A DNA stretch of 64,000 nucleotides from sequence record NC_041877.1. One strand, 5' to 3'. Source of the DNA: Pseudomonas phage SM1. The translations under genes and the position numbers were made by a program. This document shows, piece by piece, positions 17,145 through 53,701 of this stretch (position 1 is its first letter; every line of letters begins with the position of its first letter). The notes under the pieces were generated by a model that did no database searches, had not been told where the DNA came from, and saw nothing but the letters and a program-made list of their open reading frames with translations.

Positions 17145-17154
17145 GGAGCACCAA

Positions 17155-24907: not shown

Positions 24908-24942
24908 GGCGGACGGGGGTTCGATTCCCCCCAGCTCCACCA
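24908..24942 (+). ncRNA. tmRNA (ssrA) 3'-end-like segment: T arm, acceptor 3' strand and encoded CCA
   Basis: GGCGGACGGGGGTTCGATTCCCCCCAGCTCCACCA closely resembles the 3' end of proteobacterial tmRNA (…GGACGCGGGTTCAACTCCCGCCAGCTCCACCA); no canonical tRNA 5' half could be paired upstream. Confidence 0.4.
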
Positions 24943-25266
24943 AAGACATTCTCGGCCAGCACGTTCGTTCCTAGGTGTGAGAAGGTGGCTGCGATACTGC
25001 CGGGTGGTTGCTAGGAACATCATTCGGAAAGTCCAGCTAGAGAGTGTCTCTGATGGGGCTGTTCAGGATTCGACGCCGCGCGTACTTAGCGAAGGCAGCA
25101 AGGAAAGGCGACGCACCTTGACGCGCGCAAATCGATAAACGCCAACGATACTTCGTTCGACGTTCGCCTCGCAGCCTAAACCCCTGCGGAGTGACGGGTA
25201 GCCTCCGGGCTTCCTCCCCCTGCTACGGCTAGTACCCGTAGTTGCCTTGGAACAGAAAGGGGAGGG

Positions 25267-25342
25267 CCTTCGCGTAGGCGCACTGACGGTCGGCACTCCA
25301 CCGCACGCCTGTCAGGGGGCTGTCAGTGCGCCTACGCGAAGG
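25267..25342. repeat. 21-bp perfect inverted repeat (CCTTCGCGTAGGCGCACTGAC / GTCAGTGCGCCTACGCGAAGG) with a 34-nt loop
   Basis: Exact reverse-complement arms at 25267-25287 and 25322-25342. Confidence 0.85.
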
Positions 25343-31538: not shown

Positions 31539-32222
31539 ATGAGTCTCGAAACTAAACTCAATCAGCTCGCTACGGCAGTCGGTACCGATGTCAAAGGTAT
31601 TTTAGTGTCTATTGGCAATCTGGCAGACCTGGGCATCACTCCCACTCCTGCTAGTTTGGTCGCCGCTCTACTCCTGTATAAAGCTGATATCGATGGCAAC
31701 ACGAACAGCATAGGCGACCTCAGTGCCCTGACCACGACGGCTAAGAGCAACCTCGTAGCCGCGATCAACGAAGTAAAAAGTCTGATCGGGCAGTCTGGCG
31801 CGGTGATCGACGATAACGCTGGCATCGGCGACACGGACGTAACTTGGTCTGCCGACAAGTCAGCTACGGAACTCGCTGGTAAATTGGCCATCACCAGCAA
31901 AGCCACTGGCGACGACGTGATTGCAGGTACCGATGACGTTAAGTACACCACATCCAAAGCTGTCGCTGCGGGTATCGCCAAGGCAGTAGGTGATCTGGTA
32001 AATGGCGCGCCCGAGGTACTGGATACTCTGAAAGAGCTGGCTGACGCCCTCGGCAACGATCCTAACTACGCGGCCACTATCGCAGAGGCGTTGGGCAAGC
32101 GTGTACGGGTAGACGCAGCGCAGACTTTCACCACCGCCGAGAAGCTTCAAGGTTGTCAGAATCTGGGTGTTGGCGACCCAGAGCAGGACCTCGTAGCCGT
32201 ATATAATGCAGCTAAGGCGTAA
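31539..32222 (+). CDS. tail fibre protein (N-terminal conserved fibre domain)
   Basis: GAPEVLDTLKELADALGNDPNYAATIAEALGKRV is a widespread tail-fibre N-terminal motif; N-terminus paralogous to the next gene. Confidence 0.6.
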   Translation: MSLETKLNQLATAVGTDVKGILVSIGNLADLGITPTPASLVAALLLYKADIDGNTNSIGDLSALTTTAKSNLVAAINEVKSLIGQSGAVIDDNAGIGDTDVTWSADKSATELAGKLAITSKATGDDVIAGTDDVKYTTSKAVAAGIAKAVGDLVNGAPEVLDTLKELADALGNDPNYAATIAEALGKRVRVDAAQTFTTAEKLQGCQNLGVGDPEQDLVAVYNAAKA

Positions 32223-32227
32223 CAACT

Positions 32228-33958
32228 ATGAGCCTCGCACAACGTCTATCAGCACTAGCCCAGGCGATAGCTCAGGATGTAAAAAACATCATCCTTAACT
32301 ATCGTTTGAAGACCGATCTGTACGAGGAGAAGACTACTGCGGTAACAGTGGCACCTTCTACTTTCGACCAAGTTAAGCAGGCTCGATGGCTAAAGGCGAC
32401 CTGGGCGCCCTCTTCTGCCAGCAATGGAGGGGTAGTAGCTGCTGACTTCGTAGATATGATCTTCAACGGGGCTAACGGAAGCGTAACTGGGGGCGGCCAC
32501 TACGTTGGCCGCTTTACCTATTTGCAAGCGATTGGCGGCGGCGCGCTCGATCAAGGCTTTCTCGAAGAGCATCGAGTAGGCGTCCGCAACAGCACTACGG
32601 TAAACACGGTCATAGGACGTAAGTGGGTTATCGATAAGAACTCGGAAGCTAGCGGTACTATAGGCAAGTTGGCGTTGGAGGTATTCGACGACATGCGCGC
32701 CGATGTCAGTTACGTGCAGCGATTCACTCGCGAGTTCTTAGACCCGCGTATGGTTACGTTACATGCTGGCGGGGTAATACAGACTGGAGTCATCATAGGG
32801 GACGAAACTACAACAGTCTCCATTGCGGACTATTGGTCAGGTAAGTCTGTCTACCTCAATAGTGCCAGTAATCGAACTCTATCGGTACCTGCCTCGATCA
32901 CTGAAGGCTTCTCTTTGAAGCTGATCCAGGGATCGTTAGGTGGTAAATGGTCGATCACCGCTCCGGGCCGTACGATTCTGTCTAACACTGGAGCAACAGC
33001 CACTGTTAACGCCTACGATATAGTCACCTTGAAGGTCTACCCCGGAGGGATAGTGTGGCTAGAGTTCGAGGCTAATCCGGCCACCAGTTACGACACTTCC
33101 AAGGTCGTGCCGATTATTAATGGCGGTACTGGCGCTACGAGTGCCGCTGCCGCGCGGTCGAATCTATTCGATACCCGTTTGCAGAACTTCAGTTCGCTAT
33201 CGGGTGGCGTTGACCAACTCCCATATCAGACTGGGGCCAATACCTGGGCGCAGACCCCTCTCACCTCGGTAGGGCGGGGCGTTTTAGGTGGAAGTACAGT
33301 TGCTAACGTCCTTTCTTACCTTGGCGGCGTACCCAAAAGTCTAGCGTCTAACCGGACGGTCTCCGATCCGAATACTGTGCCGGATGAGTGTGGTTTTTAC
33401 AGCATAGGTTCGAGCCCGTGGTCTAACTTACCGGCGGGCGTAGACTCTCTGAACCCCATAGGTTCAATGCTGTATCACCATCCGTACGATGCAGCTACCG
33501 CAGTTCAAATGTTGGTGGTTCGTACATCTAACTTGATGTACTTCCGACGGCGCGCGGCTGGGTCGTGGCAGGCGTGGAACCGTGTTTTGTCGGATACTCA
33601 GCTACTCGGTATTGTCGCCCAGACTGGAGGCGTTCCTGTAGGTTCCGTGATAGAGCGTGGTAGTAACTCTAACGGCCAGTATGTTCGTTTTGCTGATGGG
33701 ACTCAGATTTGCATAATTAGCTTGCTAGGGGCGAATGACCGGACTGCTGGCGTAGGCTACACGCTCACGTTGCCTGTATCTTTCACTCCAGATTGGACCG
33801 TGGGGGTATCGGTGTCCTGGGTGTCGCACGCAACGAACCCGTCAACATACAACGGCACGCGTGTTGCTTATGCTAACGGTAACGCCTTGACGTTTATACT
33901 CTCTGAGAACCTGACAACTAACCGATTAATTTTTACCTGCATAGGAAGGTGGTTCTAA
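32228..33958 (+). CDS. tail fibre / receptor-binding protein
   Basis: 576 aa; N-terminus MSLAQRLSALAQAIAQDVKNI paralogous to the 31539 gene; Gly/Ser/Thr-rich beta-like composition. Confidence 0.55.
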   Translation: MSLAQRLSALAQAIAQDVKNIILNYRLKTDLYEEKTTAVTVAPSTFDQVKQARWLKATWAPSSASNGGVVAADFVDMIFNGANGSVTGGGHYVGRFTYLQAIGGGALDQGFLEEHRVGVRNSTTVNTVIGRKWVIDKNSEASGTIGKLALEVFDDMRADVSYVQRFTREFLDPRMVTLHAGGVIQTGVIIGDETTTVSIADYWSGKSVYLNSASNRTLSVPASITEGFSLKLIQGSLGGKWSITAPGRTILSNTGATATVNAYDIVTLKVYPGGIVWLEFEANPATSYDTSKVVPIINGGTGATSAAAARSNLFDTRLQNFSSLSGGVDQLPYQTGANTWAQTPLTSVGRGVLGGSTVANVLSYLGGVPKSLASNRTVSDPNTVPDECGFYSIGSSPWSNLPAGVDSLNPIGSMLYHHPYDAATAVQMLVVRTSNLMYFRRRAAGSWQAWNRVLSDTQLLGIVAQTGGVPVGSVIERGSNSNGQYVRFADGTQICIISLLGANDRTAGVGYTLTLPVSFTPDWTVGVSVSWVSHATNPSTYNGTRVAYANGNALTFILSENLTTNRLIFTCIGRWF

Positions 33959-34260
33959 TGTACATAAAACTATCCCCGTACGTAGTGATCCCTGGCGACA
34001 GCACGGATATGGAGGTTTCCGTATCTGGCGATTTGATCGCCATCAACGGTACCGACTTCGACTTTTCGCCGTTGCCGGAGGGTGCAGAGCTGCCAGCCGT
34101 AGCTACAGGCTCGGACTACTTTGAGGGCTCTATTACCCGCGTTGATGGGGAAATCCGCTTGACCTTGAAGTTGCCTATCTCCTCGGACGCAAGCGAAGAG
34201 GCGCGATTCCCGGCGCCGATTCACGTAACGTGGAGCGGTCCAGTGGAGTTGCCGAAATGA
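33949..34260 (+). CDS. hypothetical protein (possible tail-fibre assembly or accessory protein)
   Basis: 103-aa ORF overlapping the tail-fibre 3' end. Confidence 0.4.
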   Translation: MVLMYIKLSPYVVIPGDSTDMEVSVSGDLIAINGTDFDFSPLPEGAELPAVATGSDYFEGSITRVDGEIRLTLKLPISSDASEEARFPAPIHVTWSGPVELPK

Positions 34261-34472
34261 CTATCGATTGGGGTCATTTGAAAACTCCCGAGGAACTGTT
34301 GGAGGAGAAGCGACAGCTTGTCAGGCAGCAGCGGAGAGAAGCCTACGGCATAGAATCACTCCCGCTGTATATGGAGGCCCAGTACGAAGCGGCCAAGACG
34401 GGACAACCTGCTGACCTAACCGAATGGGTAGCTAAGGTTGACGAAATCGTAGCGCGCTATCCGATGCCGTAG
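34257..34472 (+). CDS. hypothetical small protein
   Basis: ATGA overlap with the upstream gene; 71 aa. Confidence 0.4.
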   Translation: MTIDWGHLKTPEELLEEKRQLVRQQRREAYGIESLPLYMEAQYEAAKTGQPADLTEWVAKVDEIVARYPMP

Positions 34473-34486
34473 AGGTAGAAAGGAAA

Positions 34487-34590
34487 TCCTGTGTGGGCAT
34501 GGACGCTCCCCTACTAAATCCTGTGTGGGCATACGCCTTCCCCTACTGTCCAGATTCTGTGTGGGCATACGGGCTCCCCTACTACACCCC
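34487..34590 (+). repeat. three tandem 32-36-bp repeats (TCCTGTGTGGGCAT...TCCCCTACT)
   Basis: CTGTGTGGGCAT at 34489, 34521 and 34557, each followed by a CCCCTACT half; the CTGTGTGGGCAT core also occurs at 42811 and 43904. Confidence 0.8.
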
Positions 34591-34838
34591 AGTGCAGTTT
34601 TGTGCTTATTCGCCGGCGTCAGTGTTCGATTACTGGCAGCTCCCGCTGGCCGCTGGGTGGTCTCCTTCTGGTTACTGGTGTTGAGCTGGTGAACTCTTCT
34701 TGTGCTACCCCACTGACTGTCAGATTTAGCTTTCTGGTAGTAGGCCTCTGGTATTCGCTCGCTGTAGCAGCACACAATCCCATATCGCGTATAATGCAAG
34801 CGTTTGCACTAATTCAGTCACCCAGAGGGGATGCTTAG

Positions 34839-35105
34839 GTGAAACTTACAGAACAAGATATCCGCAAAGCATTGGGGCTCCCGGAACCTAAGAAAGCCAA
34901 AAAGGCTGCGCAGAGCCGACCCCATAAAGGTCCGACTATAGTAGTAGTATTAAATGTCCGCCGACCGAATTCCTGGCCGCCGGAGCGAAAACTTTATCGC
35001 ATGCCTACTATATTCGAAACGCAAGCTATCGTAGCGGCGCACCAGCAAGCCCGCGCGGAAGGTTATATAGTTCATGCGCACCTCGACACGTACATAGAGG
35101 ATTGA
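34839..35105 (+). CDS. hypothetical small basic protein
   Basis: GTG start 7 nt after the conserved TCACCCAGAGGGGA leader motif. Confidence 0.45.
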   Translation: MKLTEQDIRKALGLPEPKKAKKAAQSRPHKGPTIVVVLNVRRPNSWPPERKLYRMPTIFETQAIVAAHQQARAEGYIVHAHLDTYIED

Positions 35106-35179
35106 TCTCTGTCTATTGTCGAACTAATTAGACGGCTCCATAATGGGGCCATATACCTACAGTACCCAGAGGGGCTAGC

Positions 35180-35824
35180 ATGAAAACGAAAACTGAAATT
35201 GCATCGATGGTACGGGAAGGGTTGACGAGCCTTTCTGAGAAAGCACTCGCTGAACTTACCCGTCTTGAGAAAAATAATGGTGAAACCTTCAAACGCCTGA
35301 TGCAACGGCAGGAGAAAGTAGGCGCCGCTGAAGCTGCCGCCGAGTTGCTGCTAGCTATCGCGATTAGCGCGGCTGCGGAGTTTCGGCCAACTAATGTCCA
35401 GCTCACTGCTAAGCCTGGAAATTGCCTATCGTCAGCGTCTGCGCAAAGATCGCGTGAATCCGCCGGGCAGGTTTTAGATTTTCTTTGGCGACTCGAAAAT
35501 GAACCAACGGTAGATACCTCATACTCGCTGGTATACCTCGGTACCTGCCTGCCGGACTATTTTCTAGGTTTTGGCGGGCATGTGTTCGCCGTTCCGCTCT
35601 CGGCCCGGCCACGCAAGCGCGACGTTAAAACCGGGCTGCTATCGAGTATTAACGTCGAAGAAATTTACGACGAGAGTGGCGAACCCGTCGGTGAAAGTGC
35701 GTACCTAGGTCTGGCTCAAGCAGTAGAAGAACTGTTTGCTGGAGAAAACATGATGGAGTCTTGGATGCGCTCTATTGTGGACCTGAGCGAGAGCTACGCT
35801 TATTTCGGTGTTGTCCGGGTTTGA
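35180..35824 (+). CDS. hypothetical protein
   Basis: ATG preceded by TACCCAGAGGGG leader motif. Confidence 0.5.
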   Translation: MKTKTEIASMVREGLTSLSEKALAELTRLEKNNGETFKRLMQRQEKVGAAEAAAELLLAIAISAAAEFRPTNVQLTAKPGNCLSSASAQRSRESAGQVLDFLWRLENEPTVDTSYSLVYLGTCLPDYFLGFGGHVFAVPLSARPRKRDVKTGLLSSINVEEIYDESGEPVGESAYLGLAQAVEELFAGENMMESWMRSIVDLSESYAYFGVVRV

Positions 35825-35893
35825 TCATTATACTCTAACTCGCCAGTTCGACGCTGACTGTTATTCAATATTCGTTACCCAGAGGGAACAATC

Positions 35894-36469
35894 ATGGAAA
35901 AGCTTAAAATTTCTGATCTAGAGTCCGGCGATATTACTCTGAAGATTCTGGCTTCCGTCGATACCGAACATAGGGATTATCTTCGTGTTCTTCATCGGCT
36001 CGGTTTGTTCCGGTTACGTACGGAGGCCGACTCTAGTTGTAGTTTCGAGGACTTGTGTGGCGACTCTTATAACCCTGAAGTAGTCACTGATATTGACGCG
36101 GATGAGCTTAAAAAACAGAAAGAAAAATTCCGTAGGGAAGTAAAGGCCTCTGGAGTCTGGGGCGTGATTTTGGAGGCTCGGCCCAGCTCCTCTGTTCCCT
36201 GGGAGGATGCTGAGCACGTTGATTCCATATGGGGTTTTGTTGGTACTAGCTTCCAGGGATCAGGCTATGATAGGGATATGTTGGCGCTAGCCTATGAGTG
36301 GTTGGCCCAACATAGCACCGACGAAATCCATAATCTGTATGTCCAGTGCCTGTATAGCCAAGCGGTTCTCGCTGAACTTTCGGATCGTCTACCGGTTGAG
36401 GAGTGCGCCATACTGAAGGATATACAAGCGCGTCTTTCGGTTGCCGTGCGCAAGCTAACTAATCCGTAA
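35894..36469 (+). CDS. hypothetical protein
   Basis: ATG preceded by TACCCAGAGGGAA leader motif. Confidence 0.5.
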   Translation: MEKLKISDLESGDITLKILASVDTEHRDYLRVLHRLGLFRLRTEADSSCSFEDLCGDSYNPEVVTDIDADELKKQKEKFRREVKASGVWGVILEARPSSSVPWEDAEHVDSIWGFVGTSFQGSGYDRDMLALAYEWLAQHSTDEIHNLYVQCLYSQAVLAELSDRLPVEECAILKDIQARLSVAVRKLTNP

Positions 36470-36524
36470 CTGGCCGGCGTGCAAACGCTTGCACGCCTAC
36501 GTGTCCTGAAAAAGGGGTTTAGTA

Positions 36525-37043
36525 ATGAGCAAATTTATTATTGAGTGGGGACGTTTGGACGAGACTCTACCGACTTCTGTACCCATGGCTACTGCCATGT
36601 TTGAAGTAGAGTCGCTCTCTGGGGCTTTCCGAATGGTGGGAAGCCTCGCCCATACGCTCACCACTGATCGGGTGGAAGATAGCGCCGTTTTGAGTAATAT
36701 CTACGGATGCGTAGCGCATCGGTTCAATTCTGCTCTGAAGGCGAACGGGCGTGCAGTCTTCTGGGGCGCGAGAGATGACTGGTTCATCTCCATAACCAAC
36801 CGGGACAAACATCCTCTGGATGGAGGTTACCGCTCAGTAGCGCAGACGAAAGTAAAGGCCAAGTGGATGGCCACGCTTAGCCTTCGTCGAGAATTCCCGC
36901 TGAAGGAACAAACGCGCAAACTCGTGCAGCAGCTAATAGCAGAGCATGAGCGTTGTCATTCCTATTGCGAGGGCGACTGCCGTATGGGGATCGCTATTCG
37001 CGATGCGGAGATAGCTCTGAACGCCATGGAGAGTCCGCTGTGA
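36525..37043 (+). CDS. hypothetical protein
   Basis: 172-aa ORF after an intergenic palindrome copy (36480-36493). Confidence 0.5.
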   Translation: MSKFIIEWGRLDETLPTSVPMATAMFEVESLSGAFRMVGSLAHTLTTDRVEDSAVLSNIYGCVAHRFNSALKANGRAVFWGARDDWFISITNRDKHPLDGGYRSVAQTKVKAKWMATLSLRREFPLKEQTRKLVQQLIAEHERCHSYCEGDCRMGIAIRDAEIALNAMESPL

Positions 37044-37249
37044 TCACTATCCTGGGCCCTCTGGCGGTAATGGTAGTCACGGTATGCACGCCAGAGAATG
37101 GATGTGCTACGGCTACCAGTAAGGTAGTTCCTCTCGTGGAGTGCGAGGCAAGAAAAGAGATGGTTCTATCCGGCGCAGACGGGCGGCGCCCGCTAAGGTA
37201 TGATAAGTCTGTAAGTATTGAATGCCGGAGAGTCCAGCATGGCAACTAA
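37040..37249 (+). CDS. hypothetical small protein with a hydrophobic N-terminus
   Basis: GTG overlapping the upstream stop; VITILGPLAVMVVTV hydrophobic start. Confidence 0.35.
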   Translation: MITILGPLAVMVVTVCTPENGCATATSKVVPLVECEARKEMVLSGADGRRPLRYDKSVSIECRRVQHGN

Positions 37250-37448
37250 ACTCTATATCGTCGAGGTGCGGGATTCCGATGGGAATCTTGTATTGTCCCC
37301 GCAGTCTCCCCCGCCATTCGCTACGGCTAGCGAGCGCCAATTGCAGGAATACCACGACGAGGTTACCGGAGACTACATGGCGGAATTTAGGGATGTTCTG
37401 GGATGGTACAGAACGCAAGGTTGGCACGTACGGCGGCGGCCATGGTAG
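37239..37448 (+). CDS. hypothetical small protein
   Basis: ATG 37239; 69 aa. Confidence 0.4.
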   Translation: MATKLYIVEVRDSDGNLVLSPQSPPPFATASERQLQEYHDEVTGDYMAEFRDVLGWYRTQGWHVRRRPW

Positions 37449-37563
37449 GGGGAAAGCATGACCGAGGGTATCCTAGCACTATGGCGACTTTCAAAGCTGG
37501 CGGCCATGGTATTTGCGTTTTGTTTTCTATGGCGTCTTAACCTTCACCTAACGGATTCACCGA

Positions 37564-37878
37564 ATGAACCTACTGTTCGACACGCCGCAGTTTCGGCTGG
37601 TACCGGCGGCGCAGAAAATGAATTACGCGAACGTATCGAACCTGCTGGAGGTAAGCTACAACGGTAAGGAGGTTTACCATCCGATTGAGGTAAATACTCT
37701 AATTTTCCACTTGATGGACACGCTCGGTGTAGCCGTCGAGAGCCGAGTTACTCTCTATCTGGACAAAGCCTCTGTAGGTTGGGTATTTGGAATATGCGTG
37801 GATGAGGAGGCGATATTCGACCTTTGGCGCTATTCTGAAACAGAGTTCCCGCCATGGTTGGAGATTGAGCCTCTGTAG
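37564..37878 (+). CDS. hypothetical protein
   Basis: 104-aa ORF with a globular-looking composition; the overlapping 37458-37667 ORF was judged less likely. Confidence 0.4.
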   Translation: MNLLFDTPQFRLVPAAQKMNYANVSNLLEVSYNGKEVYHPIEVNTLIFHLMDTLGVAVESRVTLYLDKASVGWVFGICVDEEAIFDLWRYSETEFPPWLEIEPL

Positions 37879-37942
37879 GCGCCCAAGCACGCAAGGCTGC
37901 GTTATACTTCGTTTATCGCATACTACCCATGAGGGGGTTACC

Positions 37943-38698
37943 ATGAGCTTTGCAGGCAAGACCGTTAATTTCACTTGGCAGGACGCTTCCGAAAACGAAC
38001 GCGGGGTTTCCGGCTGGGTTATGTCCACCATGCCGCACTTCGATCCTGTACAGGGTATGGGCGCCGCGCATGACATCCTTGAGCACTTCACCCCGCGTGC
38101 AGGCAACGCCGGCGAAGCCGAGGCGTTCGGCGCTATCGTGTGGATTCGCCTCGACGGCGGGTATTGGGCGGCATTCGCCGATAACCCGCATACCAGCCGC
38201 ATGAGCGTAGAGGAGCACGCTAAGGGTCTGGGCCAGGAGTTCGGTGACTTCCTGCACTACAGCGATTACGAAATGGCCGAGCCTCTGGACTTCGAGCGGG
38301 TAGAAGAGCCTGACGACGAAGACGGCACCCGCTCCATTCTGCGCCTTATCTGCGCCCACGCGGCACGGCACTGTCGCAACGAACATGGCATGGACCCCAG
38401 CAAACGCCATTGCATCAAGCTGATGTACCAGTGGCTATGCAGCGGCTATGCCAAGGTGCAGGAGTTCTACGGCAACAACGCGCCGAACATGGCCGCGCTC
38501 TTCTGGGAGCTGGAGAAGGCTATCGACGACAATATCAAGTATGTGGAGCACTACTCCGGTGATCGTATCGAGGTTCGAATCGACCCCGACTACACCTGGG
38601 CGCTGACCACCATCACGGGCATCGACGAGAATGGCGACATCTGGGAGGATGGCGTCTTGTGGGGAAACGGGGAACCCGCCTACGCCGATGCCGACTAA
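37943..38698 (+). CDS. hypothetical protein
   Basis: ATG preceded by the TACCCATGAGGGGG leader-motif variant. Confidence 0.5.
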   Translation: MSFAGKTVNFTWQDASENERGVSGWVMSTMPHFDPVQGMGAAHDILEHFTPRAGNAGEAEAFGAIVWIRLDGGYWAAFADNPHTSRMSVEEHAKGLGQEFGDFLHYSDYEMAEPLDFERVEEPDDEDGTRSILRLICAHAARHCRNEHGMDPSKRHCIKLMYQWLCSGYAKVQEFYGNNAPNMAALFWELEKAIDDNIKYVEHYSGDRIEVRIDPDYTWALTTITGIDENGDIWEDGVLWGNGEPAYADAD

Positions 38699-38773
38699 TC
38701 ACTGTACGGCCCAAACCTCGTATATTTTGCTATAGTCACTTCGTATTCGTCAGTCACCCAGAGGGGATAAACA

Positions 38774-39292
38774 ATGCATAGGCCTATTCTTTCCGCAGAC
38801 GGCACCGTAGAGCTTAGCTTTATGCCGTCTTGTGTTAGCTATCGAGACTCCGCCCGTCCGGATGTACGACAGGTATTGGATGGCATTCTGTCCATGATTG
38901 GGGTCTACACGCTCACCGAGTTCGCGTCAGTGAAGCGCCTTAAAAAAGCCGAGCCTGTAGAGTACGATTACATATGGTCCAGACACGGTAGTCGTCTCTC
39001 GCCCTCGTGGCAAGAGTTCGAAGCGGCCAGGAAGCCCTACGTTGGTGCATACCTGATCAGTGGAAACTTTCGCGAAATCTCGTGCGCTTTTCGGTTCATC
39101 ACTTCTGATCGCACGTTGGCTTCCAAGTTCATCCGGGCGATGGAGCGCAATCCCGGTTGGCCAGACGCTTGCCGCTGGAGCGAAGAATTTGCACTGAAGT
39201 ATCAGGTATTCGTCGATAACTATGAGCGCTGGAAAGAATTTCGTACGGCGCGCAACCAGGGGGTGCCCAGTGAACAACAAAAACTCCATTAA
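38774..39292 (+). CDS. hypothetical protein
   Basis: ATG preceded by TCACCCAGAGGGGATAAACA leader motif. Confidence 0.5.
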   Translation: MHRPILSADGTVELSFMPSCVSYRDSARPDVRQVLDGILSMIGVYTLTEFASVKRLKKAEPVEYDYIWSRHGSRLSPSWQEFEAARKPYVGAYLISGNFREISCAFRFITSDRTLASKFIRAMERNPGWPDACRWSEEFALKYQVFVDNYERWKEFRTARNQGVPSEQQKLH

Positions 39293-39623
39293 AGCCGTAC
39301 CAGTCCGCGTATTCACCCGTGAACGTCCGTGCGACAAGGTGGACCTGTATCTGTGCTTTACCAATGGCGGCGGGGCCTATGTTCCTCGTGCCGTTGTAGA
39401 GGCCAGGGGTGAAATAGGCTTGAATGCAATAAAGTACCTGAAGAAGAACGGCCTCGCCGTGCAATTCGAGTCGGGCTCGGTGGACTACTGGCAGCTTACC
39501 CCGCCCGGTGAACAATGGTTGCAAGAAGGTCTTGCCCGGTTTCTGGAGTTACACCCGGACGCGGCTGCGCGTATACCCAAGCGCCAGGCTTCTGCTCGAA
39601 CGCGCGTGCGCCGGGCAAAGTAG
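39268..39623 (+). CDS. hypothetical protein
   Basis: GTG start overlapping the upstream gene; 118 aa. Confidence 0.4.
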
Positions 39624-39724
39624 TAAAATTCTATTAAACCCCGAAAGTTTAGAAAGTTTGCGATTTTTTGCGATAAATTCCGGACGTGCAAGCGTTTGCA
39701 CGCCTCACATCAATAGGTAAATTT

Positions 39725-40057
39725 ATGTCGAAACGTACTGAGAACGGACGCGCAGTAATTCGCGTCTGCGGGCTGGAGCCCGTAGTGCCCTTAGATATCG
39801 TGGGTAAGCTGGCGCGGGTTAGTCCGTCTGACATCATCCGCATTGCCGCAGCTATTCAGGTATTGAGCGCGGTAACCGGGATCGATAAGGCCACTCTGCT
39901 CGATTGGGATAGCTTGCCTACGGCGCAGGCTGACCCCGAACGCGCACGCGCTACGGAGGCTTTGTTTTCCGGTATCCTGGCGAATATCGACTATGAGGAG
40001 GAGTGTGCGAAAGCGTTGCAATTGCGCCGCCGGTCGAGGAAACGCCATGCCGAGTAA
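39725..40057 (+). CDS. hypothetical protein
   Basis: ATG 39725 chosen over the palindrome-embedded ATG at 39686. Confidence 0.45.
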   Translation: MSKRTENGRAVIRVCGLEPVVPLDIVGKLARVSPSDIIRIAAAIQVLSAVTGIDKATLLDWDSLPTAQADPERARATEALFSGILANIDYEEECAKALQLRRRSRKRHAE

Positions 40058-40129
40058 AACCGAGCTTTTGGTTAGCGCCGCTCTATTGGTATTGGTTTTC
40101 TCCCTTTTTTACGTACTGGGGCCAGTTCA

Positions 40130-40423
40130 ATGACTGAGATGAAGTATGTAATGTTCAGGCTCACCCACAAGGAATCTGGAATCTATAAGCTAGTCCCTGT
40201 CATATTCCCGACCTTGCTAGTTCACGCCTCGGTGGCTCATGCCAATCTGGCCTTACTGATGCAGGATTTTCCGAGGTTCGATGTGTGGGTAGATAGTGCA
40301 GGGTTCGTGAACCTCGAAGATGCCCACTGCTTCGGTGAGTCTGAGACGCTGAATAAGAAAGCGGATGGAGAGCGCGATTCTCTGGTAATCAGCACGTACA
40401 ACTATACGCACGGAATGGTCTGA
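40130..40423 (+). CDS. hypothetical protein
   Basis: 97-aa ORF. Confidence 0.4.
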   Translation: MTEMKYVMFRLTHKESGIYKLVPVIFPTLLVHASVAHANLALLMQDFPRFDVWVDSAGFVNLEDAHCFGESETLNKKADGERDSLVISTYNYTHGMV

Positions 40424-40498
40424 TCGCTGTATCTTGCGCCCCTTAGCCGGGGCGTTATAATTTCGCTATATCCATCTACTACCCATGAGGGGGTTATC

Positions 40499-40882
40499 GT
40501 GACTCGTGTAGCCGCAAGTATCGAAAAGTTCGATTTGGTTAAAAATGTGGACCGCGCTCTGGCCAAGCGGATTCGTGCCATCTGGAGAGGCGATCTTGAC
40601 GAAGTGCGCAAACACTTCCCGGAGACCGATACTCTGATCGAGGAATATTACACCCAGCCCGGGGCCCGTGAATTACGCCGTGTCATCATTGACCGCCTGT
40701 TGGACACCTGTGGCGTAGAGTACCTGGGCCAATACAAGCGCTCTGGAGAGCACGTTCACTATTGCAACGCGGGTGATCCGTACGTTACTACGGTCATGTT
40801 CTTCGATCAGAGGTTGGTTATTGGCTGTTGGGGAGACCTTGTAGAGCGTAACCTAATCCGCGAACCGGCCACCGCTTACTAA
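40499..40882 (+). CDS. hypothetical protein
   Basis: GTG preceded by the TACCCATGAGGGGG leader-motif variant. Confidence 0.45.
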   Translation: MTRVAASIEKFDLVKNVDRALAKRIRAIWRGDLDEVRKHFPETDTLIEEYYTQPGARELRRVIIDRLLDTCGVEYLGQYKRSGEHVHYCNAGDPYVTTVMFFDQRLVIGCWGDLVERNLIREPATAY

Positions 40883-40920
40883 TGCAAGCGCTTGCACCTA
40901 CTTAGAAAGGGCGAAACATC

Positions 40921-41604
40921 ATGATCAAAAATCGAGCCTACTACTACGGATTCGGGTATGAGAACGCCGGTGCGTTGCATGCTCTCGGTTGCCTGGAGCC
41001 GGAAGGTTACCCCGTGACCTTCGGAAATTTGGCTATTGCCATGAATGGTTCATGGCAGGCTAAGGCTTTCAAAGAAGGCTTTGATGCCAAGCGCGATCTG
41101 CTCCGTGACACTAAAGAGTATGCGGCGGATATGGATCGTTTCAACCGCTCTACGATCAAGAGCAGGGTAATCTCTGACCGTATCGGGAAAATGGCAAAGG
41201 GTTATATCGCTTGTGCATTGTGGGCGTCCGACGGTATACATCCTGAAACTGAAAAATTTCTCGATTCGCTGGAAGGCTTCGAGGCTGCTCCCTCATTCCT
41301 CGCCCACGCCGAGCGTACCTGCTCTGCCTTCTATGCGCAGAACATGACCGATTGCGCCGCCTTTGTCGATTTGTACCCATCGCGGGTCAGTAGCGAGTCT
41401 GACCCGTGGGAAGGCCTGGGCCACGATCTCTGGCTCACTCGCAACGGGCACGGCGCCGGTTTCTGGGATCGCGGCATGGGTAGGGTTGGTGAGCGTCTTT
41501 CTGGTAAATGCGGGCACGGTAAAGCCTTCGCCCCGCTATATCCCTACCTCACTGACGAGATTCTCGTAGACGTGGATAAGCCGTATCACAGTAAAGTCGA
41601 TTGA
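40921..41604 (+). CDS. hypothetical protein
   Basis: 227-aa ORF after palindrome copy 40883-40896. Confidence 0.5.
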   Translation: MIKNRAYYYGFGYENAGALHALGCLEPEGYPVTFGNLAIAMNGSWQAKAFKEGFDAKRDLLRDTKEYAADMDRFNRSTIKSRVISDRIGKMAKGYIACALWASDGIHPETEKFLDSLEGFEAAPSFLAHAERTCSAFYAQNMTDCAAFVDLYPSRVSSESDPWEGLGHDLWLTRNGHGAGFWDRGMGRVGERLSGKCGHGKAFAPLYPYLTDEILVDVDKPYHSKVD

Positions 41605-41674
41605 TCGCTGTAAGTAGCGCGGACGACTTGCCGACGCTACTATGCACCTACTAATCACCCAGAGGGGATAAACA

Positions 41675-42265
41675 ATGGAAATGCGTACAAAGAGTTTTAT
41701 GAATGTGTGGTCCTTCAGAGGTCGTCGGATCGAGTCCCTGAAGTTCTACACCCGCGAGGCTGGCGTTTTGGCTACTTCTGACACCGGCTATCTCCCGCAC
41801 TCGGCGGATCGATACTGCTACGAGGCGGCCACTGAAGTTAAACAGATTGCCGAGGTACGGCCAGCACGCGCCGAGCTATCCAATATCGCCCGTGGCGGTC
41901 ACTTCGTAATAGGCGGTACTCTTTATTTGGATTTGTCCGAGTTCGATTACTGGAGTATCGAAGAGCAGCAGGTAAGCTCTGGGGCTGGTTACACTCTGCA
42001 CGCTCGTGGAATAGTTTTGCAGTATGACGCTTCGGGCAGCTCCCTGGTCGGGGCTAACGAGTTTCTCAATATTCAGCGGTTCGTTTATGACCGCAGTAAA
42101 ACCGAGGAACGCGCATCCGAAAACAGGGCCAAGCTGGAAGCTGTGGCAGAGTGGTATAACCGCAATGTAGCGGACCATAGTAACCGGTACCTAAGCTTGG
42201 CCGGGGCTGAACGCCTTTTGAGCAAATTCCGGGAACTGAAGGCTATAGTAGAGGGGGAGCTATGA
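41675..42265 (+). CDS. hypothetical protein
   Basis: ATG preceded by TCACCCAGAGGGGATAAACA leader motif. Confidence 0.5.
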   Translation: MEMRTKSFMNVWSFRGRRIESLKFYTREAGVLATSDTGYLPHSADRYCYEAATEVKQIAEVRPARAELSNIARGGHFVIGGTLYLDLSEFDYWSIEEQQVSSGAGYTLHARGIVLQYDASGSSLVGANEFLNIQRFVYDRSKTEERASENRAKLEAVAEWYNRNVADHSNRYLSLAGAERLLSKFRELKAIVEGEL

Positions 42266-42388
42266 TGAGTCCCGCACCGTTCGAAGCCTTGCGCAATTTC
42301 GATGAGGCGCACGTCGCATTGTTGGGGAGAATCAAGCGAGGTAAGAAACGCTAACCCTGTATAGGCAATTGCAAGCGCTTGCACAGCA

Positions 42389-42417
42389 GCCCCGGGTCAC
42401 TCCGGGGCTTTTCTTTT
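42389..42417 (+). terminator. rho-independent terminator
   Basis: GCCCCGG-GTCACT-CCGGGGC stem followed by TTTTCTTTT; preceded by a palindrome copy (42370-42383). Confidence 0.7.
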
Positions 42418-42429
42418 CCGGGCCGAACA

Positions 42430-43100
42430 TTCGGGGGCCCGAACGCTATACAGGAAATACCTATATAGACCTTCTATATGTACTTCCCCCCTTTGAGCCC
42501 TCTTATCCCCTATCCCTCCTATACAGTCCAGCCAGGGCGATCCGGGGGCCCTCCTACCTAACTTTCGGGGCCAGAACAAAAAGAAATACATATATAGGAG
42601 AGAATCCATATAGGACTATATAGATACATAGAGAGAGTATAGAGGAAGTAGATAGCTTGTGTTCTACCTGTGGAATGTTTGCAGCAAAAATTTTGTGAAC
42701 AGGCAAGGGGTGGCCTCTGCTGTAGCTATCTGTGTCCTTCTGCTGGCTGGCGTGACTTGTGTCCTAGCTAACGTGAGCTACTGACTGCTGGATGGTAGCT
42801 ATCGTGGATTCTGTGTGGGCATGTGATATGTACTACTGTTCTCTCTGCTGTCCTATATAGGGTACTTGCTGGTGGTATGGCTCCCTGGTGATGGCTGGTG
42901 ATAACTGGTGCTGCCCGCTGATCGCTGCTGGTGACTGGTGGTCTCTGCTGCTGGTGGCTGCTGGTGAACCCGGGCCGCTGGGTGGAGCCGCTCCTACTGA
43001 TGCTCTCCTATATAGGGCGTGTGGCAATTACGACCTGGGCTTCTGGTAGGTATTGCACTCCTATATAGGGAGACCATAATGGGGCCTACGAAATACACAG
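42430..43100. other. ~670-bp ORF-free repeat-dense hub (candidate early promoter cluster or origin)
   Basis: Contains the TATATAGG family motifs, CTGTGTGGGCAT, eight CTGGTG repeats including two exact GCTGGTGG, and three TCCTATATAGGG copies; no credible ORF on either strand. Confidence 0.6.
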
Positions 43101-43121
43101 TCACCCAGGAGGGGACACATC

Positions 43122-43367
43122 ATGCCGAGCACCTATCCCAATCTTGTCTTTTGCACCCTGCCGCAGGAGATCGACGGCGACCTGTATGTAGAAGGGTTCG
43201 AAGCTTCCAATGGAATGATCGATGTAGGTAGCTTCATCCTTTCCCAGGGAATGATCCAAGGTCTGGCCCCGCTCTGCGTTACTACCAGCGTCGAGGCTGG
43301 GCTTTCGTTCCTCGATAGCTTGGAACCGCCGACCGAATTGGATATCGCTTACCTCGACAGCCTCTAA
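43122..43367 (+). CDS. hypothetical acidic small protein
   Basis: ATG preceded by TCACCCAGGAGGGGA leader motif. Confidence 0.45.
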   Translation: MPSTYPNLVFCTLPQEIDGDLYVEGFEASNGMIDVGSFILSQGMIQGLAPLCVTTSVEAGLSFLDSLEPPTELDIAYLDSL

Positions 43368-43400
43368 TGCAAGCGCTTGCACCTATATAGGAGAATCATT

Positions 43401-43853
43401 ATGTACGCCATCTATGTACACGAACGCGCAGAGAACGGCGGCGCCGGAAAGCTGGTAGACCTGATAGTGCGCGAAAGCATGTCAGAGGCGCACCGCGCCG
43501 CCTGCCGCCAGTATGGTTTTAAAAAGATGGTTTTCAAGCCGGGCGATCTACCCTTGTCCACCATCGCGGAGCTATACGAAAATCTCGACACCCGTGAGCG
43601 CTTTTTCGAACGCGTCAATACTCTGGAGCTGCGCCAGGGCGACATCGTTGTCCATACCCTCGGCTTGATCCACCTAGGCGAGCGGCTCATCAGTGAAGCT
43701 CATAACGACGTGAAGGATGATGGCGGATGGTGCGAGTATGGGCCGGACGACGAGCTGCTCTGGGCGTGGCCTTCCGGCATCTCTACCTCTACCCGGAAAT
43801 ACAATATCCAAGGTAACGGCCTCGCCAACTGGATTCGGTTCAAACGTACTTAG
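43401..43853 (+). CDS. hypothetical protein
   Basis: ATG after GGAGAATCATT; the start embedded in the palindrome/TATATAGG motif was rejected. Confidence 0.45.
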   Translation: MYAIYVHERAENGGAGKLVDLIVRESMSEAHRAACRQYGFKKMVFKPGDLPLSTIAELYENLDTRERFFERVNTLELRQGDIVVHTLGLIHLGERLISEAHNDVKDDGGWCEYGPDDELLWAWPSGISTSTRKYNIQGNGLANWIRFKRT

Positions 43854-44145
43854 TGGATCGGGGCCCGGTGTGGCCCCATCTCTGTTATTACTCCCTGGTG
43901 ATCCTGTGTGGGCATGTGTATTTAATTACTGGTGACTGGTGAAGCTTCCGGCCCAGTGATCGCTGGTGAAGTGGAAACCCCTGTAGCACGCCATTGACGT
44001 GCTTCACCGCTGGTCGAGGGGTACAGACGTGCTACAACTTTTGGCACGGTCCGTGCTACGCCCGCGCGCACCCGTTTCCTCCTTCTGGTAGGGAAAGCAG
44101 GTGCAAGCGCTTGCCTTGTGTTATGAAATTATTTTGAAAATATGC

Positions 44146-44174
44146 TTGACCTGGCTCTGTGAGGTACATATTAT
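44146..44174 (+). promoter_or_regulatory. sigma70-like promoter (TTGACC-17-TATTAT) with an AT-rich UP-like element
   Basis: -35 TTGACC at 44146-44151, 17-nt spacer, -10 TATTAT at 44169-44174; upstream AT-rich TTATGAAATTATTTTGAAAATATG. Confidence 0.55.
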
Positions 44175-44227
44175 GACTTCCAAGCCAGGCAATACCGCCT
44201 AGGCAAGTCACCCAGAGGGGACGTACC

Positions 44228-44794
44228 ATGCAAGCTCTCATTGAAAAGAACATCGCCGAAACCGCCGCCCAAGTTACTGAAGCTCCGGCCAAGGCCAAAA
44301 AAGCCACTGCCGCCAAGCCCGCAGCCAAGCCCGTCAAGAAAGCGGCAGCCAAGCCCAAGGCAAAAGCTCCGGCCAAAGCAAAAACCGCAGCCAGCAAAGG
44401 CGCAGCCAAGCCCCGCGCGGCCAAGGCGAAAGCAGCCACTACCGCAGCTTTCTTTATCCATCCGCAGTTCCGTCCGGTAGCCGGGGCCCGTCTCGCAGCT
44501 CATACCGAGGCCGTTCTTCAGTATTTCGGTCTGTACGGCGAAGGCGTCAAAGTTTCCCGCCGGGAGCTGGCGCGCGTAATGGGCGATACCGCAGTCGGTT
44601 ACCACCTTAACAAGACTCGCAATTTCGAGGAGTCCGACAAGATGATCAGCCTGAGCAAAGTAGGCCGTATTGCCTTCGGGGCCCGTCAGGGTAACGTACG
44701 CGACGAAGAACGCGATGCGTTCCTGGCCATCTTCCGGACCGGCAAGGCGAACGAGATTGCCCATATCCCGCAAGACTTGATCCTGGCCGCGTAA
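44228..44794 (+). CDS. histone-H1/AlgP-like DNA-binding protein (AKP-repeat N-terminus plus globular C-terminal domain)
   Basis: ATG preceded by TCACCCAGAGGGGA leader motif; N-terminus AKAKKATAAKPAAKPVKKAAAKPKAKAPAKAKTAASKGAAKPRAAKAKA. Confidence 0.55.
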   Translation: MQALIEKNIAETAAQVTEAPAKAKKATAAKPAAKPVKKAAAKPKAKAPAKAKTAASKGAAKPRAAKAKAATTAAFFIHPQFRPVAGARLAAHTEAVLQYFGLYGEGVKVSRRELARVMGDTAVGYHLNKTRNFEESDKMISLSKVGRIAFGARQGNVRDEERDAFLAIFRTGKANEIAHIPQDLILAA

Positions 44795-44848
44795 CCTCGA
44801 ACGGGGCCCATAGCGGGCCCCACTACCTAACCCTATAGGAGATATCCC

Positions 44849-45073
44849 ATGGCACGTAAACCTCTCGTAGTGAGCGCCGTAGCTCGCATCTTCCGCGTCC
44901 AGGCTAATGAGACCGTCATAGTTGAGGAACTGGCCTATAGCGATCTTACAGCAGAGCAACGCGCCTACTTCGAAGGCCTGAAAGAGCGTGATCGCCTGGA
45001 CAGCATTCGGGCAAAGGCTGAGGCCTACGCGCTAGCTAACCCGCAGCCCCGCGCTATGTTCCTTATCGACTAA
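44849..45073 (+). CDS. hypothetical small protein
   Basis: RBS AGGAGATATCCC then ATG; 74 aa. Confidence 0.4.
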   Translation: MARKPLVVSAVARIFRVQANETVIVEELAYSDLTAEQRAYFEGLKERDRLDSIRAKAEAYALANPQPRAMFLID

Positions 45074-45959: not shown

Positions 45960-46406
45960 ATGTCTCTACCCATAGTCCACCAGACCCAGCCTCTACCCGA
46001 TGCCTGCGCATGCACCTGCCTAGCAATGCTATCAGGGCAGCCGGCGGCCACTATCATTGACAGCTACCATGCGGGGTACCGCGACGGAAGCATGTCCGTA
46101 TTCGAGATCATGGATAAGCTGGGCATCTGCGCAGAGTACGCGGAAGGCCATACGCTGTACCCAGGAAATCTCTACCTTCTATACGTAGCGTCGCTGAATT
46201 TGCGAGGAGTTCTCCATCAGGTAATTGCCGATATGCGCGAGGGGAGTTTGGTCATATTCGATCCGAACAAGGGCCGAGCAGGTAAGAGTTACTACTATGT
46301 AGGCCACGAGCAGCTTCCGCCTGACCCTTTAGCGGTGCCGCTCACAGACTGGGGAGTGGATGCCAAAATAGTCGTAGCGCCTGCGCTGCAATTTTCAATA
46401 CGTTAA
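45960..46406 (+). CDS. hypothetical protein (Cys-containing, possibly peptidase-like)
   Basis: RBS AAGGAACC then ATG; 148 aa; N-terminal DACACTCLAM. Confidence 0.45.
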   Translation: MSLPIVHQTQPLPDACACTCLAMLSGQPAATIIDSYHAGYRDGSMSVFEIMDKLGICAEYAEGHTLYPGNLYLLYVASLNLRGVLHQVIADMREGSLVIFDPNKGRAGKSYYYVGHEQLPPDPLAVPLTDWGVDAKIVVAPALQFSIR

Positions 46407-53050: not shown

Positions 53051-53701
53051 ATGGATCAGATAGACCGCAATACCCTAGGCGACGCTGTAGCTGCCTTTCT
53101 CGCCAATGGTGGCTCGGTTGAACAGTGCCCGCCCGTCGAGCCCAGTAGTAGAAAGCCGAAAACCACGCGCCGATCCAAGTCACCTCGGGCTAGTGGATTG
53201 CCAGAAACCCACCCGTTTGATGTTCCTCTGAGCCTTGGTGAACGTACCCATGCGAGCGCCGTTAAACGCTGCGTAGAGCAAGGGTACAGCCTGACGCAGG
53301 CAGTGAAGCACCTGGGGCTCCCTCGTGATGTTGTCCTGCGAATCTGCCGAGAGTATCAATTTCGACTACGCGGCCCTCGCCCAGAAAGCGAAACCCAGGC
53401 TATACAGGCTCTAGCAGAACGGTACGCCATAGGAGACTGTCACGCGGTAGCCTGTCGAAAACTGGGATTGGACCAGGGAGTTTACCAAACCGCCTACGCC
53501 CGCTACCGGGCCGCCGACCCTTCTCTACCGGAGCCTCCCTCCGCGTCTAGCTATTCTGAAGCTCAGATTCTTTCTATGCTGCTGCTAGGTCTTCGACAGG
53601 GCCGCAAACTGATAGAGATCATAGACGACAACGGCCTGAATACGGCTGAGGCTATGCGCATCTACGACCGGCATAGGCGCGCTCGCCGCCGATTACTGTA
53701 G
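53051..53701 (+). CDS. hypothetical protein with HTH-like segments
   Basis: GYSLTQAVKHLGLPRDVVLRICREY HTH-like segment. Confidence 0.45.
   Translation: MDQIDRNTLGDAVAAFLANGGSVEQCPPVEPSSRKPKTTRRSKSPRASGLPETHPFDVPLSLGERTHASAVKRCVEQGYSLTQAVKHLGLPRDVVLRICREYQFRLRGPRPESETQAIQALAERYAIGDCHAVACRKLGLDQGVYQTAYARYRAADPSLPEPPSASSYSEAQILSMLLLGLRQGRKLIEIIDDNGLNTAEAMRIYDRHRRARRRLL

Follow-up and report, generated by a model that had tools for sequence, protein, structure and literature searches.

The stretch of DNA analysed here (the window) comprises 64,000 nucleotides (nt) of the genome of Pseudomonas phage SM1 (record NC_041877.1) and shows 98–100% identity to the Pseudomonas aeruginosa siphophages SM1, PaMx31, UF_RH6, PA_L9 and FBPa45 (genus Samunavirus, all of approximately 94 kilobases, kb), with nearly all of its genes carried on the + strand. 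Its early region contains a composite repeat at three intergenic loci, referred to as A, B and C, in which an asymmetric bipartite unit (the U unit, or U-box) is combined with an array of short CTGGTG-type direct repeats. Locus A (34473–34838) lies between the end of the tail-fibre block and a long series of small ORFan genes beginning at 34839; the tail-fibre genes are placed by PHROGs at 31539–33958, the block itself ends at 34472, and neither Pfam nor PHROGs gave an assignment for the ORFan early genes downstream of locus A. Loci B and C are situated 8–9.5 kb deeper into the early region, and in the complete genome of PA_L9 the box-plus-array element is confined to this one 9.5-kb early region. 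The features of the three loci, together with one early gene that is discussed below, are as follows.

34486–34589, + strand: locus A, A-type U units, three in tandem (ATYCTGTGTGGGCAT-N5-YTCCCCTACTR), beginning 14 nt past the stop codon of the last tail-module gene (34472)
34628–34760, + strand: locus A, G/T-rich and A-poor DNA containing repeats of CTGG, CTGGTG (34675 and 34686) and CTGGTA (13.6% A over 34590–34780)
34790–34838, + strand: locus A, TATAAT hexamer, palindrome TGCAAGCGTTTGCA and ribosome-binding block CAGTCACCCAGAGGGGA, ahead of the GTG of the first early gene at 34839
39270–39623, + strand: early protein of 117 amino acids (aa), putative trans-acting factor, the best-conserved early protein in the local comparison and identical to SM1 gp084
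42388–42409, + strand: intrinsic terminator AGCCCCGGGTCACTCCGGGGCT with T-run, closing the first early transcription unit (terminator scan)
42440–42660, no strand assigned: locus B left arm, rich in A and with a local GC content of 35%, where copies of the TATAG unit are mostly in reverse orientation (inverted repeats I1–I18)
42670–42705, + strand: locus B centre, GTGGAATGTTTGCAGCAAAAATTTTGTGAACAGGCA, the point at which strand composition switches (by reading the sequences)
42808–42838, + strand: locus B, B/C-type U unit ATTCTGTGTGGGCATGTGATATGTACTACTG (unit alignment)
42852–43069, + strand: locus B right arm, forward CTCCTATATAGGG units at 42852, 43007 and 43060 bracketing the CTGGTGR array (repeat families)
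42868–42985, + strand: locus B, eight CTGGTGR and further degenerate copies, including two GCTGGTGG octamers (repeat finding)
43053–43080, + strand: locus B, sigma70-like promoter TTGCAC-16-CATAAT, the spacer of which holds CCTATATAGGG, 242 nt past the U-box and followed by gene 43122–43367
43860–43877, + strand: weak terminator, a G+C-rich hairpin after the gene ending at 43853 (terminator scan)
43895–43969, + strand: locus C, CTGGTGA, U unit ATCCTGTGTGGGCATGTGTATTTAATTACTG, then CTGGTGA at 43929, 43936 and 43963, with homology also at both ends of the UF_RH6 cassette
43985–44059, + strand: AGCACG-N7-CGTGCT and GCACGG-TC-CGTGC, two inverted repeats 3' of the locus C array and 5' of the promoter (by reading)
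44146–44174, + strand: near-consensus sigma70 promoter TTGACC-17-TATTAT (10/12), 242 nt past the locus C U-box and followed by gene 44228–44794

The exact 12-mer CTGTGTGGGCAT that marks the unit occurs in the window at 34489, 34521, 34557, 42811 and 43904, with all five copies on the + strand and approximately 0.008 copies expected in 64 kb, and the near-identical complete genome of PA_L9 holds the identical five copies and none beyond them. Within the window the unit reads ATYCTGTGTGGGCAT-N11-TACT, and the units at locus A are spaced by 32 and 36 nt, as determined with a repeat finder and with Tandem Repeats Finder. The positions and sequences of the repeats at the three loci, which had been listed in an earlier reading of the letters alone (the sequence-only reading), were correct on recheck; its three tandem units at locus A are present as well, but the third of them begins with ATTCTG and not with TCCTG. 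When 33 units from nine phage genomes are aligned, the U-box resolves into a semi-conserved GTGGAYYC, a near-invariant TGTGTKGGCAY, 12 variable nt and a final ACTR. The A-type units, which make up the tandem group at locus A, have a C-rich spacer of the form N5-YTCCCC-W-ACTR, and the G+C-richness of their 12-nt spacer (GCTCCCCT) would be unfavourable to promoter melting and irrelevant for a protein-binding site. The B/C-type units carry an AT-rich spacer, often GTGnTATTWAnn, and in several of them ACTR supplies the first base of a ACTGGTGA repeat. A known RNA family was rejected as an identity for the element, since Rfam gave no match up to E 1 over 34000–45000 and the partial GUGUGGG/CCCCUAC pairing of the A-type units is absent, on reading of the alignment, from the B/C-type units and from unit 2 of the uncultured relative L012.

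Directly 3' of the box follows the array, which consists of 100–200 nt of A-poor, G/T-rich DNA (14% A vs 23.5% window-wide) made up of CTG(G/C)TG(A). At locus B the hexamer CTGGTG occurs eight times (42869, 42885, 42895, 42905, 42928, 42935, 42951 and 42961), at locus C three times after the box and once before it (43895), and at locus A twice. Inside the three intergenic regions, which amount to 1,238 nt or 1.9% of the window, lie 14 of the 17 CTGGTG copies found on the + strand of the window and all nine copies of CTGGTGA on that strand, vs none of the 20 CTGGTG copies on the – strand. The distances between copies show local peaks at 3, 7, 10, 13, 20, 23, 30 and 33 nt, and the locus B array is scored by Tandem Repeats Finder and the repeat finder as a degenerate 10-nt tandem (5.6 copies, then 2.0). 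Short direct repeats with periods of 7 and 10 nt resemble arrays to which small dimeric proteins bind cooperatively.

The cultured relatives are too similar to be informative about selection on the element, and uncultured ones were obtained through single-box pattern scans of IMG/VR, which returned mostly noise and yielded L012 and L202; they represent two uncultured relatives of 95 and 104 kb (L012; L202 and L523), each with the tandem triplet directly after the last gene of the syntenic block and with a B-like locus in addition. Their synteny was established by local BLASTP, at 30–68% protein identity. Records of the BHU type with deletions at locus A were set aside because they are UNVERIFIED, fragmented assemblies. 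A query with the early protein of 39270–39623 retrieved 23 homologues of 48–65% identity, and seven contigs carrying such homologues have boxes and arrays at matching places in each lineage. At the place equivalent to locus A, two or three tandem units are found in L012, L523, L526, L528, L533 and L534. In the lineages that were read, the element follows a stop codon or terminator and precedes the next early genes, and the syntenic places A, B and C are kept.

Pooled over 224 kb, 12 loci and approximately 10 related phage lineages, GTGTKGGCAY occurs 49 times on the + strand and twice on the – strand, against 0.86 expected per strand, and ACTR stands exactly 12 nt past the box in 36 of the 49 cases and 13 nt past it in another five. 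A zone from –150 to +300 of the box, covering 5.7% of the bases, holds 110 of the 137 pooled + strand copies of CTGGTG, and 3 of the 92 on the – strand. The array consensus drifts in the relatives to CTGGTC or GGTGTC, and the DNA between the motifs gave no alignment among relatives. Given that the flanking proteins are only 30–68% identical (48–65% for the marker protein) and that the intervening DNA cannot be aligned, the box would appear to be under purifying selection, and we infer that selection also maintains the geometry and orientation of the box as well as the array composition. The proposal of the sequence-only reading that the two parts form a functional cassette is thus borne out by comparative genomics, in that the architecture is conserved, locked in orientation and syntenic in approximately 10 related phage lineages. 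Outside this family, a tandem-box scan of 185,579 species genomes gave no match in Pseudomonas and only unrelated, scattered ones, and the host genome was rejected on this basis as the source of the motif; the corresponding metagenome scan gave, among the matches listed, none with a box and ACT 12 nt further on, and a protein-pattern search with the early gene 45960–46406 found no relatives.

The loci with box and array are non-coding; PAL9_123, the open reading frame (ORF) that PA_L9 annotates over the three units of locus A, is frameshifted by a 4-nt deletion in FBPa45 and by a 1-nt deletion in PaMx31. Both PAL9_123 and orf53 of UF_RH6 are public-record ORFs called across repeat arrays, and both are probably spurious.

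The repeats also mark places at which gene content differs. UF_RH6 has an extra two-gene cassette (orf50-orf49) of approximately 930 base pairs (bp). This cassette has a box, an array and a TATAG-type promoter of its own, and CTGGTGATCCTGTGTGGRCATGTG...ATTAATTACTG stands at either side of it; the promoter at its head, TTGCGT-16-CATAAT, follows the same design as the one at 43053 of the window. A second box-flanked cassette is seen in L524, where boxes at 3246 and 3616 enclose a DUF7352 gene, which splits the three boxes at the place of locus A. As the box repeats mark the cassette boundaries, recombination at the repeats is real, and cassette gain and loss with the dispersed, near-identical repeats of approximately 45 nt as crossover points is seen as an outcome. 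The box-flanked positions are natural insertion points for cassettes.

Sigma70-type promoters are located 3' of the arrays in relatives as well, with TTGACC-17-TATAAT (11/12) at the locus A-equivalent place in L523 and TTGACG-16-TACAAT in L524, and the existence of such separate downstream promoters argues that the box is an upstream element and not the sole promoter. The combination of a stop codon or terminator on the 5' side with a host-type promoter on the 3' side suggests that each locus forms the head of an early transcription unit. Where a sigma70-type promoter is visible, it lies 134–421 bp from the box; in three Samunavirus modules this distance is 242, 242 and 244 bp, and for the third unit of locus A it is 210–211 bp, values that come close to whole numbers of helical turns. 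Between the locus C array and its promoter lie the paired inverted repeats at 43985–44059, which may represent an operator or a pair of RNA hairpins, and AGCACG-N7-CGTGCC pairs are also seen after the last U-box of L202 (at approximately 7180–7245, with protein identity of approximately 30–58%). The first gene after locus C, 44228–44794 on the + strand, has the best sigma70 promoter of the region upstream of it and encodes Ala/Lys/Pro-rich repeats, with a 12-nt tandem repeat GCCAAGCCCGCA in the DNA; an 'alginate regulatory protein' annotated within the corresponding part of FBPa45 is taken here to be that gene.

Locus B is in every lineage read a non-coding stretch of 0.7–1.2 kb, the largest of the early region, and keeps its syntenic place. 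Its layout in the relatives consists of a terminator, an A-rich left arm, a conserved centre with an A5-tract and a G/T-rich right arm with boxes and arrays, the left-arm arrangement being present also in L202, L534 and L526. Both arms contain a unit of approximately 40 nt, which reads CTCTCTATAGGG...CCGCCCG in relatives and CTCCTATATAGGG in the window and is mostly reversed in the left arm and forward in the right arm; for instance, TATATAGGAGAGAATC of the left arm is 94% complementary to 42999–43014. On reading, the centre resembles the GTGAAyaTTcCCGCAAAAATTCTCTGGTGA of relatives. The linear FBPa45 record ON857939.1 both starts and ends inside this locus, at a position corresponding to 43005 of the window and just before CCTATATAGG at 43007, which may reflect an assembly break at the repeats or hint at a real terminus. 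A genome end or packaging (pac) site was rejected as an identity for the element on the grounds that UF_RH6 is circularly permuted according to a PhageTerm report, that record starts are arbitrary and that the terminase genes are at least 14 kb from locus A.

The interpretation that we tentatively prefer, while granting that it may well be wrong, is that the composite acts as a one-directional cis control element specific to SM1-like (Samunavirus) phages and their uncultured relatives, in which a phage protein would bind a nucleation box and an array and thereby switch early promoters. The high information content and asymmetry of the box, its rigid two-part spacing and the G+C-rich spacer of the A-type units make the element behave like a protein recognition site; the constant succession of a box and then, on the promoter side, a direct-repeat array is the layout of a nucleation site with a cooperative array; and the position of the arrays 5' of host-type early promoters, at the heads of early units, favours control of early transcription. 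In the model proposed here, a sequence-specific DNA-binding protein of the phage, made early, would nucleate on the U-box, with locus A as the main early promoter equipped with three boxes, and would from there fill the adjacent array toward the promoter. The resulting nucleoprotein complex would then switch the early promoters, most plausibly in the sense of shut-off or timing. The candidate for the binder is the protein of 39270–39623, which is encoded in the first early unit and for which a DNA-binding, winged-helix fold with a basic tail is predicted. Its AlphaFold2 model has a predicted local distance difference test score (pLDDT) of 72, and the top Foldseek matches in the PDB are nearly all winged-helix regulators (PadR, ArsR, MarR, AspA and TubR), with E of 0.02–0.1 and TM scores of 0.34–0.48; an early protein of this predicted fold appears to be conserved in every lineage examined.

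Cooperative repeat arrays are known from the omega-repressor heptads of pSM19035, from ParR-parC of plasmid R1, from TubR-tubC and from AspA of pNOB8. The element resembles these operator and centromere arrays in having direct repeats of 6–11 bp within or upstream of promoters, in variable copy number and spacing, and in the small winged-helix candidate binder, for which AspA and TubR are among the predicted fold matches; the array of short direct repeats that precedes the promoter is what would be expected of a cooperative operator. It differs from them in that an asymmetric bipartite site of 26 nt and high information precedes every array, and in its presence at three or more loci of a lytic phage that has no partition genes. 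A further parallel is provided by the PeSL of T4-type phages, reportedly described by Arbiol et al. in 2010 as an early promoter plus stem-loop that flanks ORFs in hyperplastic regions. As with PeSL, near-identical regulatory repeats are dispersed at the heads of small early genes and coincide with cassette gain and loss, and they flank variable ORFs in a plastic early region (in UF_RH6 and L524); unlike PeSL, which is itself a sigma70 early promoter with a hairpin, the box is neither of these and the sigma70 promoter lies separately downstream.

Several observations weigh against the proposed control element. The link between the winged-helix protein and the box is a guess, and the fold matches on which the prediction of the protein's class is based are weak by the values given above; moreover, the genome contains two or more further dispersed motifs, among them the TGCAAGCGCTTGCA palindrome and the TATAG units, to which the same protein might bind instead. 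The box-to-promoter distance of 242/242/244 bp fails in the other lineages, and this variation, together with a 4-nt deletion in the spacer of FBPa45, led to rejection of a fixed helical distance between box and promoter. Long-range helical phasing of the array was not found, the periodicity statistic over 8–100 nt being weak, nor was a fixed register of the array to the box, the register being nearly flat, so that long-range 10-bp phasing and a fixed box register were both ruled out. TGnTATTWA together with the pyrimidine-purine step at ACT/R gives the B/C-type units a promoter-like look, and locus B shows features of the replication-origin type as well. Finally, full-text literature searches by motif and by genus gave nothing relevant on the motifs or on regulation.

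The promoter-like features just named are central to a different explanation, according to which the U-box is itself a promoter of the middle or delayed-early class, read by a host RNA polymerase that a phage factor has redirected, either by sigma appropriation or through a divergent small sigma; transcripts would then carry the CTGGTG array as their leader, and these genes would have a further, immediate-early start at the sigma70 promoter downstream. We consider this unlikely, albeit worth serious attention. The unit is bipartite and rigidly spaced (N12 exact in 36 of 49), the orientation of the box is that of the genes, and it always comes after a terminator or stop codon; ACT/R offers a pyrimidine at –1 and a purine at +1, with TGnTATTWA 5–6 nt upstream of it in several B/C-type units, and since a phage RNA polymerase was not found, the host polymerase would have to be reprogrammed somehow. 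A phage protein that might do so is encoded at 53051–53701 on the + strand (216 aa), where sub-threshold Pfam matches point to the RNA polymerase-binding domain of SutA (residues 6–28, E 1.3e-4) and to two helix-turn-helix (HTH) families; it could be a factor contacting host RNA polymerase, and a PDB sequence search with it was uninformative. Against this stands the fact that no unit has a sigma70-type –10 hexamer: none passed the sigma70 scan, and in the 33-unit alignment no conserved T at –7 or A at –11 is present in any register, for which reason a sigma70 promoter was excluded as the identity of the U-box. The unit is not sigma54-like either, for although TKGGCAY is similar to a –24 element, the –12 position is occupied by YTCC or by AT-rich sequence, and TTGC, hence GC at 10 nt past GG, occurs in only one of the 33 units (L012 at 12171). 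In addition, the would-be melting region of the A-type units is G+C-rich, three units placed 32–36 bp apart cannot hold polymerase simultaneously, a sigma domain was not detected in the approximately 80 proteins scanned against Pfam, and the 7- and 10-nt periods of the array, seen in DNA, have no obvious meaning in RNA. A known counterpart would be the T4 middle promoters (MotA box and –10 element, with sigma appropriation), in which, as here, an upstream box takes the place of the –35 element at a fixed distance from a short downstream element, 5' of early or middle genes that also have host-type promoters; the unit differs from them in having ACTR instead of TAnnnT, in its tandem triplets 32–36 bp apart and in that a MotA/AsiA homologue was undetected. 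A more exotic variant, in which an unrecognised transcription apparatus, be it a cryptic, highly divergent phage RNA polymerase or a new way of re-targeting the host polymerase, would use the U-box and, at locus B, the CTC(T/C)CTATA(TA)GGGAG units as promoters, strikes us as a long shot. Pfam showed no RNA polymerase domain in the ORFs of PA_L9 and the window above 400 aa, a set in which PAL9_56 (1,750 aa) and PAL9_71 were covered by eye instead; a six-frame scan of the whole genome for T7 motifs A and C found neither, with one DxDGD in an ORF of 146 aa, and PDB sequence searches with four large proteins lacking an assignment found nothing. A set of T7-type promoters with a cognate enzyme was rejected on this basis, although a very divergent enzyme might escape these scans.

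An equally doubtful, if substantial, explanation takes the arrays as iterons of a replication origin, with locus B as the origin proper, loci A and C as auxiliary sites and the U-box as the primary site of the initiator; phage P4, with its ori and crr, is a model for an origin with auxiliary sites. It would account for the size and syntenic conservation of the non-coding locus B in all lineages read, for its A-rich left arm (35% GC at 42590–42660), A5-tract centre and inverted arms of approximately 40-nt units, and for the 10-nt period of the repeats on the right. Genes for a DnaB-like helicase, a primase, a family A DNA polymerase and a RecA-like protein (11536–12738) were found with Pfam, an initiator was not recognised with Pfam or PHROGs, and winged-helix proteins are the usual binders of iterons. 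The likeness to iteron origins such as those of phages P4 and lambda extends to short direct repeats at more than one locus and, for locus B, to an AT-rich segment within a large conserved non-coding region. However, one and the same box-plus-array module heads at least three loci, two of which, A and C, have no AT-rich unwinding region; in UF_RH6 the module travels with the two-gene cassette, a behaviour that regulatory modules, but not origins, would be expected to show; the iterons are of small size and uneven spacing; and the cumulative GC skew is monotonic, with no origin signal.

That the repeats serve mainly as recombination linkers, which like PeSL shuffle early gene cassettes by illegitimate or homologous exchange and have little regulatory role, is improbable in our view. 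The boxes do bracket the UF_RH6 cassette and the L524 gene, and the phage has a RecA-like protein, proteins of the RecA family being known to prefer G/T-rich sequence such as that of the arrays; yet orientation, N12-ACTR geometry and the three syntenic positions are kept at protein identities of 30–68%, which speaks for sequence-specific recognition. Very improbable is a role of the boxes as sites of strand-specific DNA processing, either site-specific nicks, which occur in T5 and in Pseudomonas phages of the LUZ24/tf type, or a pac signal. The extreme strand bias (49 vs 2) would suit such a role, and the TACT/R step bears a loose resemblance to TACT/RTGMC, the consensus for nicks in tf-like phages, but the match fails past TACTR, the sites are limited to three early intergenic loci and are not genome-wide, and the likely terminase genes (19512–20354 and 20351–22282) lie far from the boxes.

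The idea that the arrays act as Chi-like sites, which would modulate host RecBCD and so protect linear phage DNA or stimulate recombination, came from the sequence-only reading and is scarcely credible now. Two exact copies of the E. coli Chi octamer GCTGGTGG are indeed found in locus B (42868 and 42950), all array copies share a single orientation, the arrays are G/T-rich, and the first five bases, GCTGG, also begin the Pseudomonas Chi GCTGGCGC. Nevertheless, GCTGGTGG is not enriched, with 3 copies in the window vs 2.26 expected and 44 of 100 shuffles reaching 3, and the repeat unit is a different one: the array consensus is (G/A)CTGGTGA, which drifts as described above in relatives, and only 2 of the 14 copies read GCTGGTGG. 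The host is P. aeruginosa, and Chi in Pseudomonas has been biochemically defined only in P. syringae Lz4W, where RecBCD uses GCTGGCGC, the E. coli Chi being reported there as not recognised by pseudomonads (PMC5959072). In loci A, B and C GCTGGCGC is absent; one 7-mer, GCTGGCG, is present at 42746. The Chi idea is therefore largely refuted, a judgment that relies on the literature for the host RecBCD, whereas the cassette on which it had been hung is conserved in relatives. More generally, exact E. coli Chi octamers within a G/T-rich repeat are no evidence for Chi if the host is non-enteric.

Phage regulatory repeats, iteron and operator arrays and mobile regulatory cassettes are familiar in kind; the combination of a bipartite, oriented box with a CTGGTG array across a family of phages of 94–104 kb appears to be undescribed. 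SM1-like phages have been gathered for P. aeruginosa therapy, and their early genes are almost all ORFans. The present analysis defines a non-coding grammar for their early region, made up of three syntenic control loci, an oriented box, an array and separate host-type promoters, and offers concrete starting points from which transcription units can be mapped, the regulator and the origin sought and the phages engineered.

Some further observations concern other motifs and genes of the window. The TATAG unit CTCCTATATAGGGAG is found at 42852, 43007, 43060 and 43382 and corresponds in relatives to CTCTCTATAGGGAG (L202 at 6664–7050 and L534 at 15180–15600), which we take to match positions –9 to +5 of the T7 promoter (CTCACTATAGGGAG) at 13 of 14 positions; the copies at 43060 and in the UF_RH6 cassette occupy the spacer of a TTGCNN-16-CATAAT promoter, and the copy at 43382 overlaps a Shine-Dalgarno sequence. 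The conserved block CAGTCACCCAGAGGGGA(T), of 16–19 nt, lies 5' of several early genes (34815–34830, 38751–38766, 41652–41667, 43098–43113 and 44205–44220) and far exceeds the length needed for a Shine-Dalgarno sequence. A palindrome of 14–16 nt, (G)TGCAAGCGCTTGCA(C), is present in 23 copies per 64 kb at no more than one mismatch in the 12-nt core, and in 30 at up to two mismatches, vs 4.35 expected in the window. Its sites, for example those at 6543, 14895, 40884, 42371, 43369, 44103 and 45436, are both intergenic and intragenic and are usually preceded by TAAT or TAGT, uncultured relatives reading GTGCAATTGATTGCAC instead; the palindrome is probably the site of a dimeric DNA-binding protein or of a modification enzyme.

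Public annotations of UF_RH6 and PA_L9 look wrong in places; that of UF_RH6 names the genes matching 31539–33958 of the window, which PHROGs calls tail-fibre genes, as large and small terminase subunits. The likely terminase genes of the window are those at 19512–20354, for a small subunit with an HTH domain (HTH_7), and 20351–22282, for the large subunit. The family A DNA polymerase (2952–5870, + strand) has an N-terminal domain of the uracil-DNA-glycosylase superfamily, and a protein of more than 500 aa (17077–18711, + strand) combines a ParB N-terminal domain with a methyltransferase domain. Within a non-coding block of 2 kb at approximately 23.7–25.7 kb, ARAGORN predicted a permuted gene resembling transfer-messenger RNA (tmRNA) at 24850–25270 on the + strand, with the tag peptide ANDTSFDVRLAA*, adjoined by a tRNA-Arg(tct) at 24768–24839; a tmRNA on a phage would, if real, be unusual.

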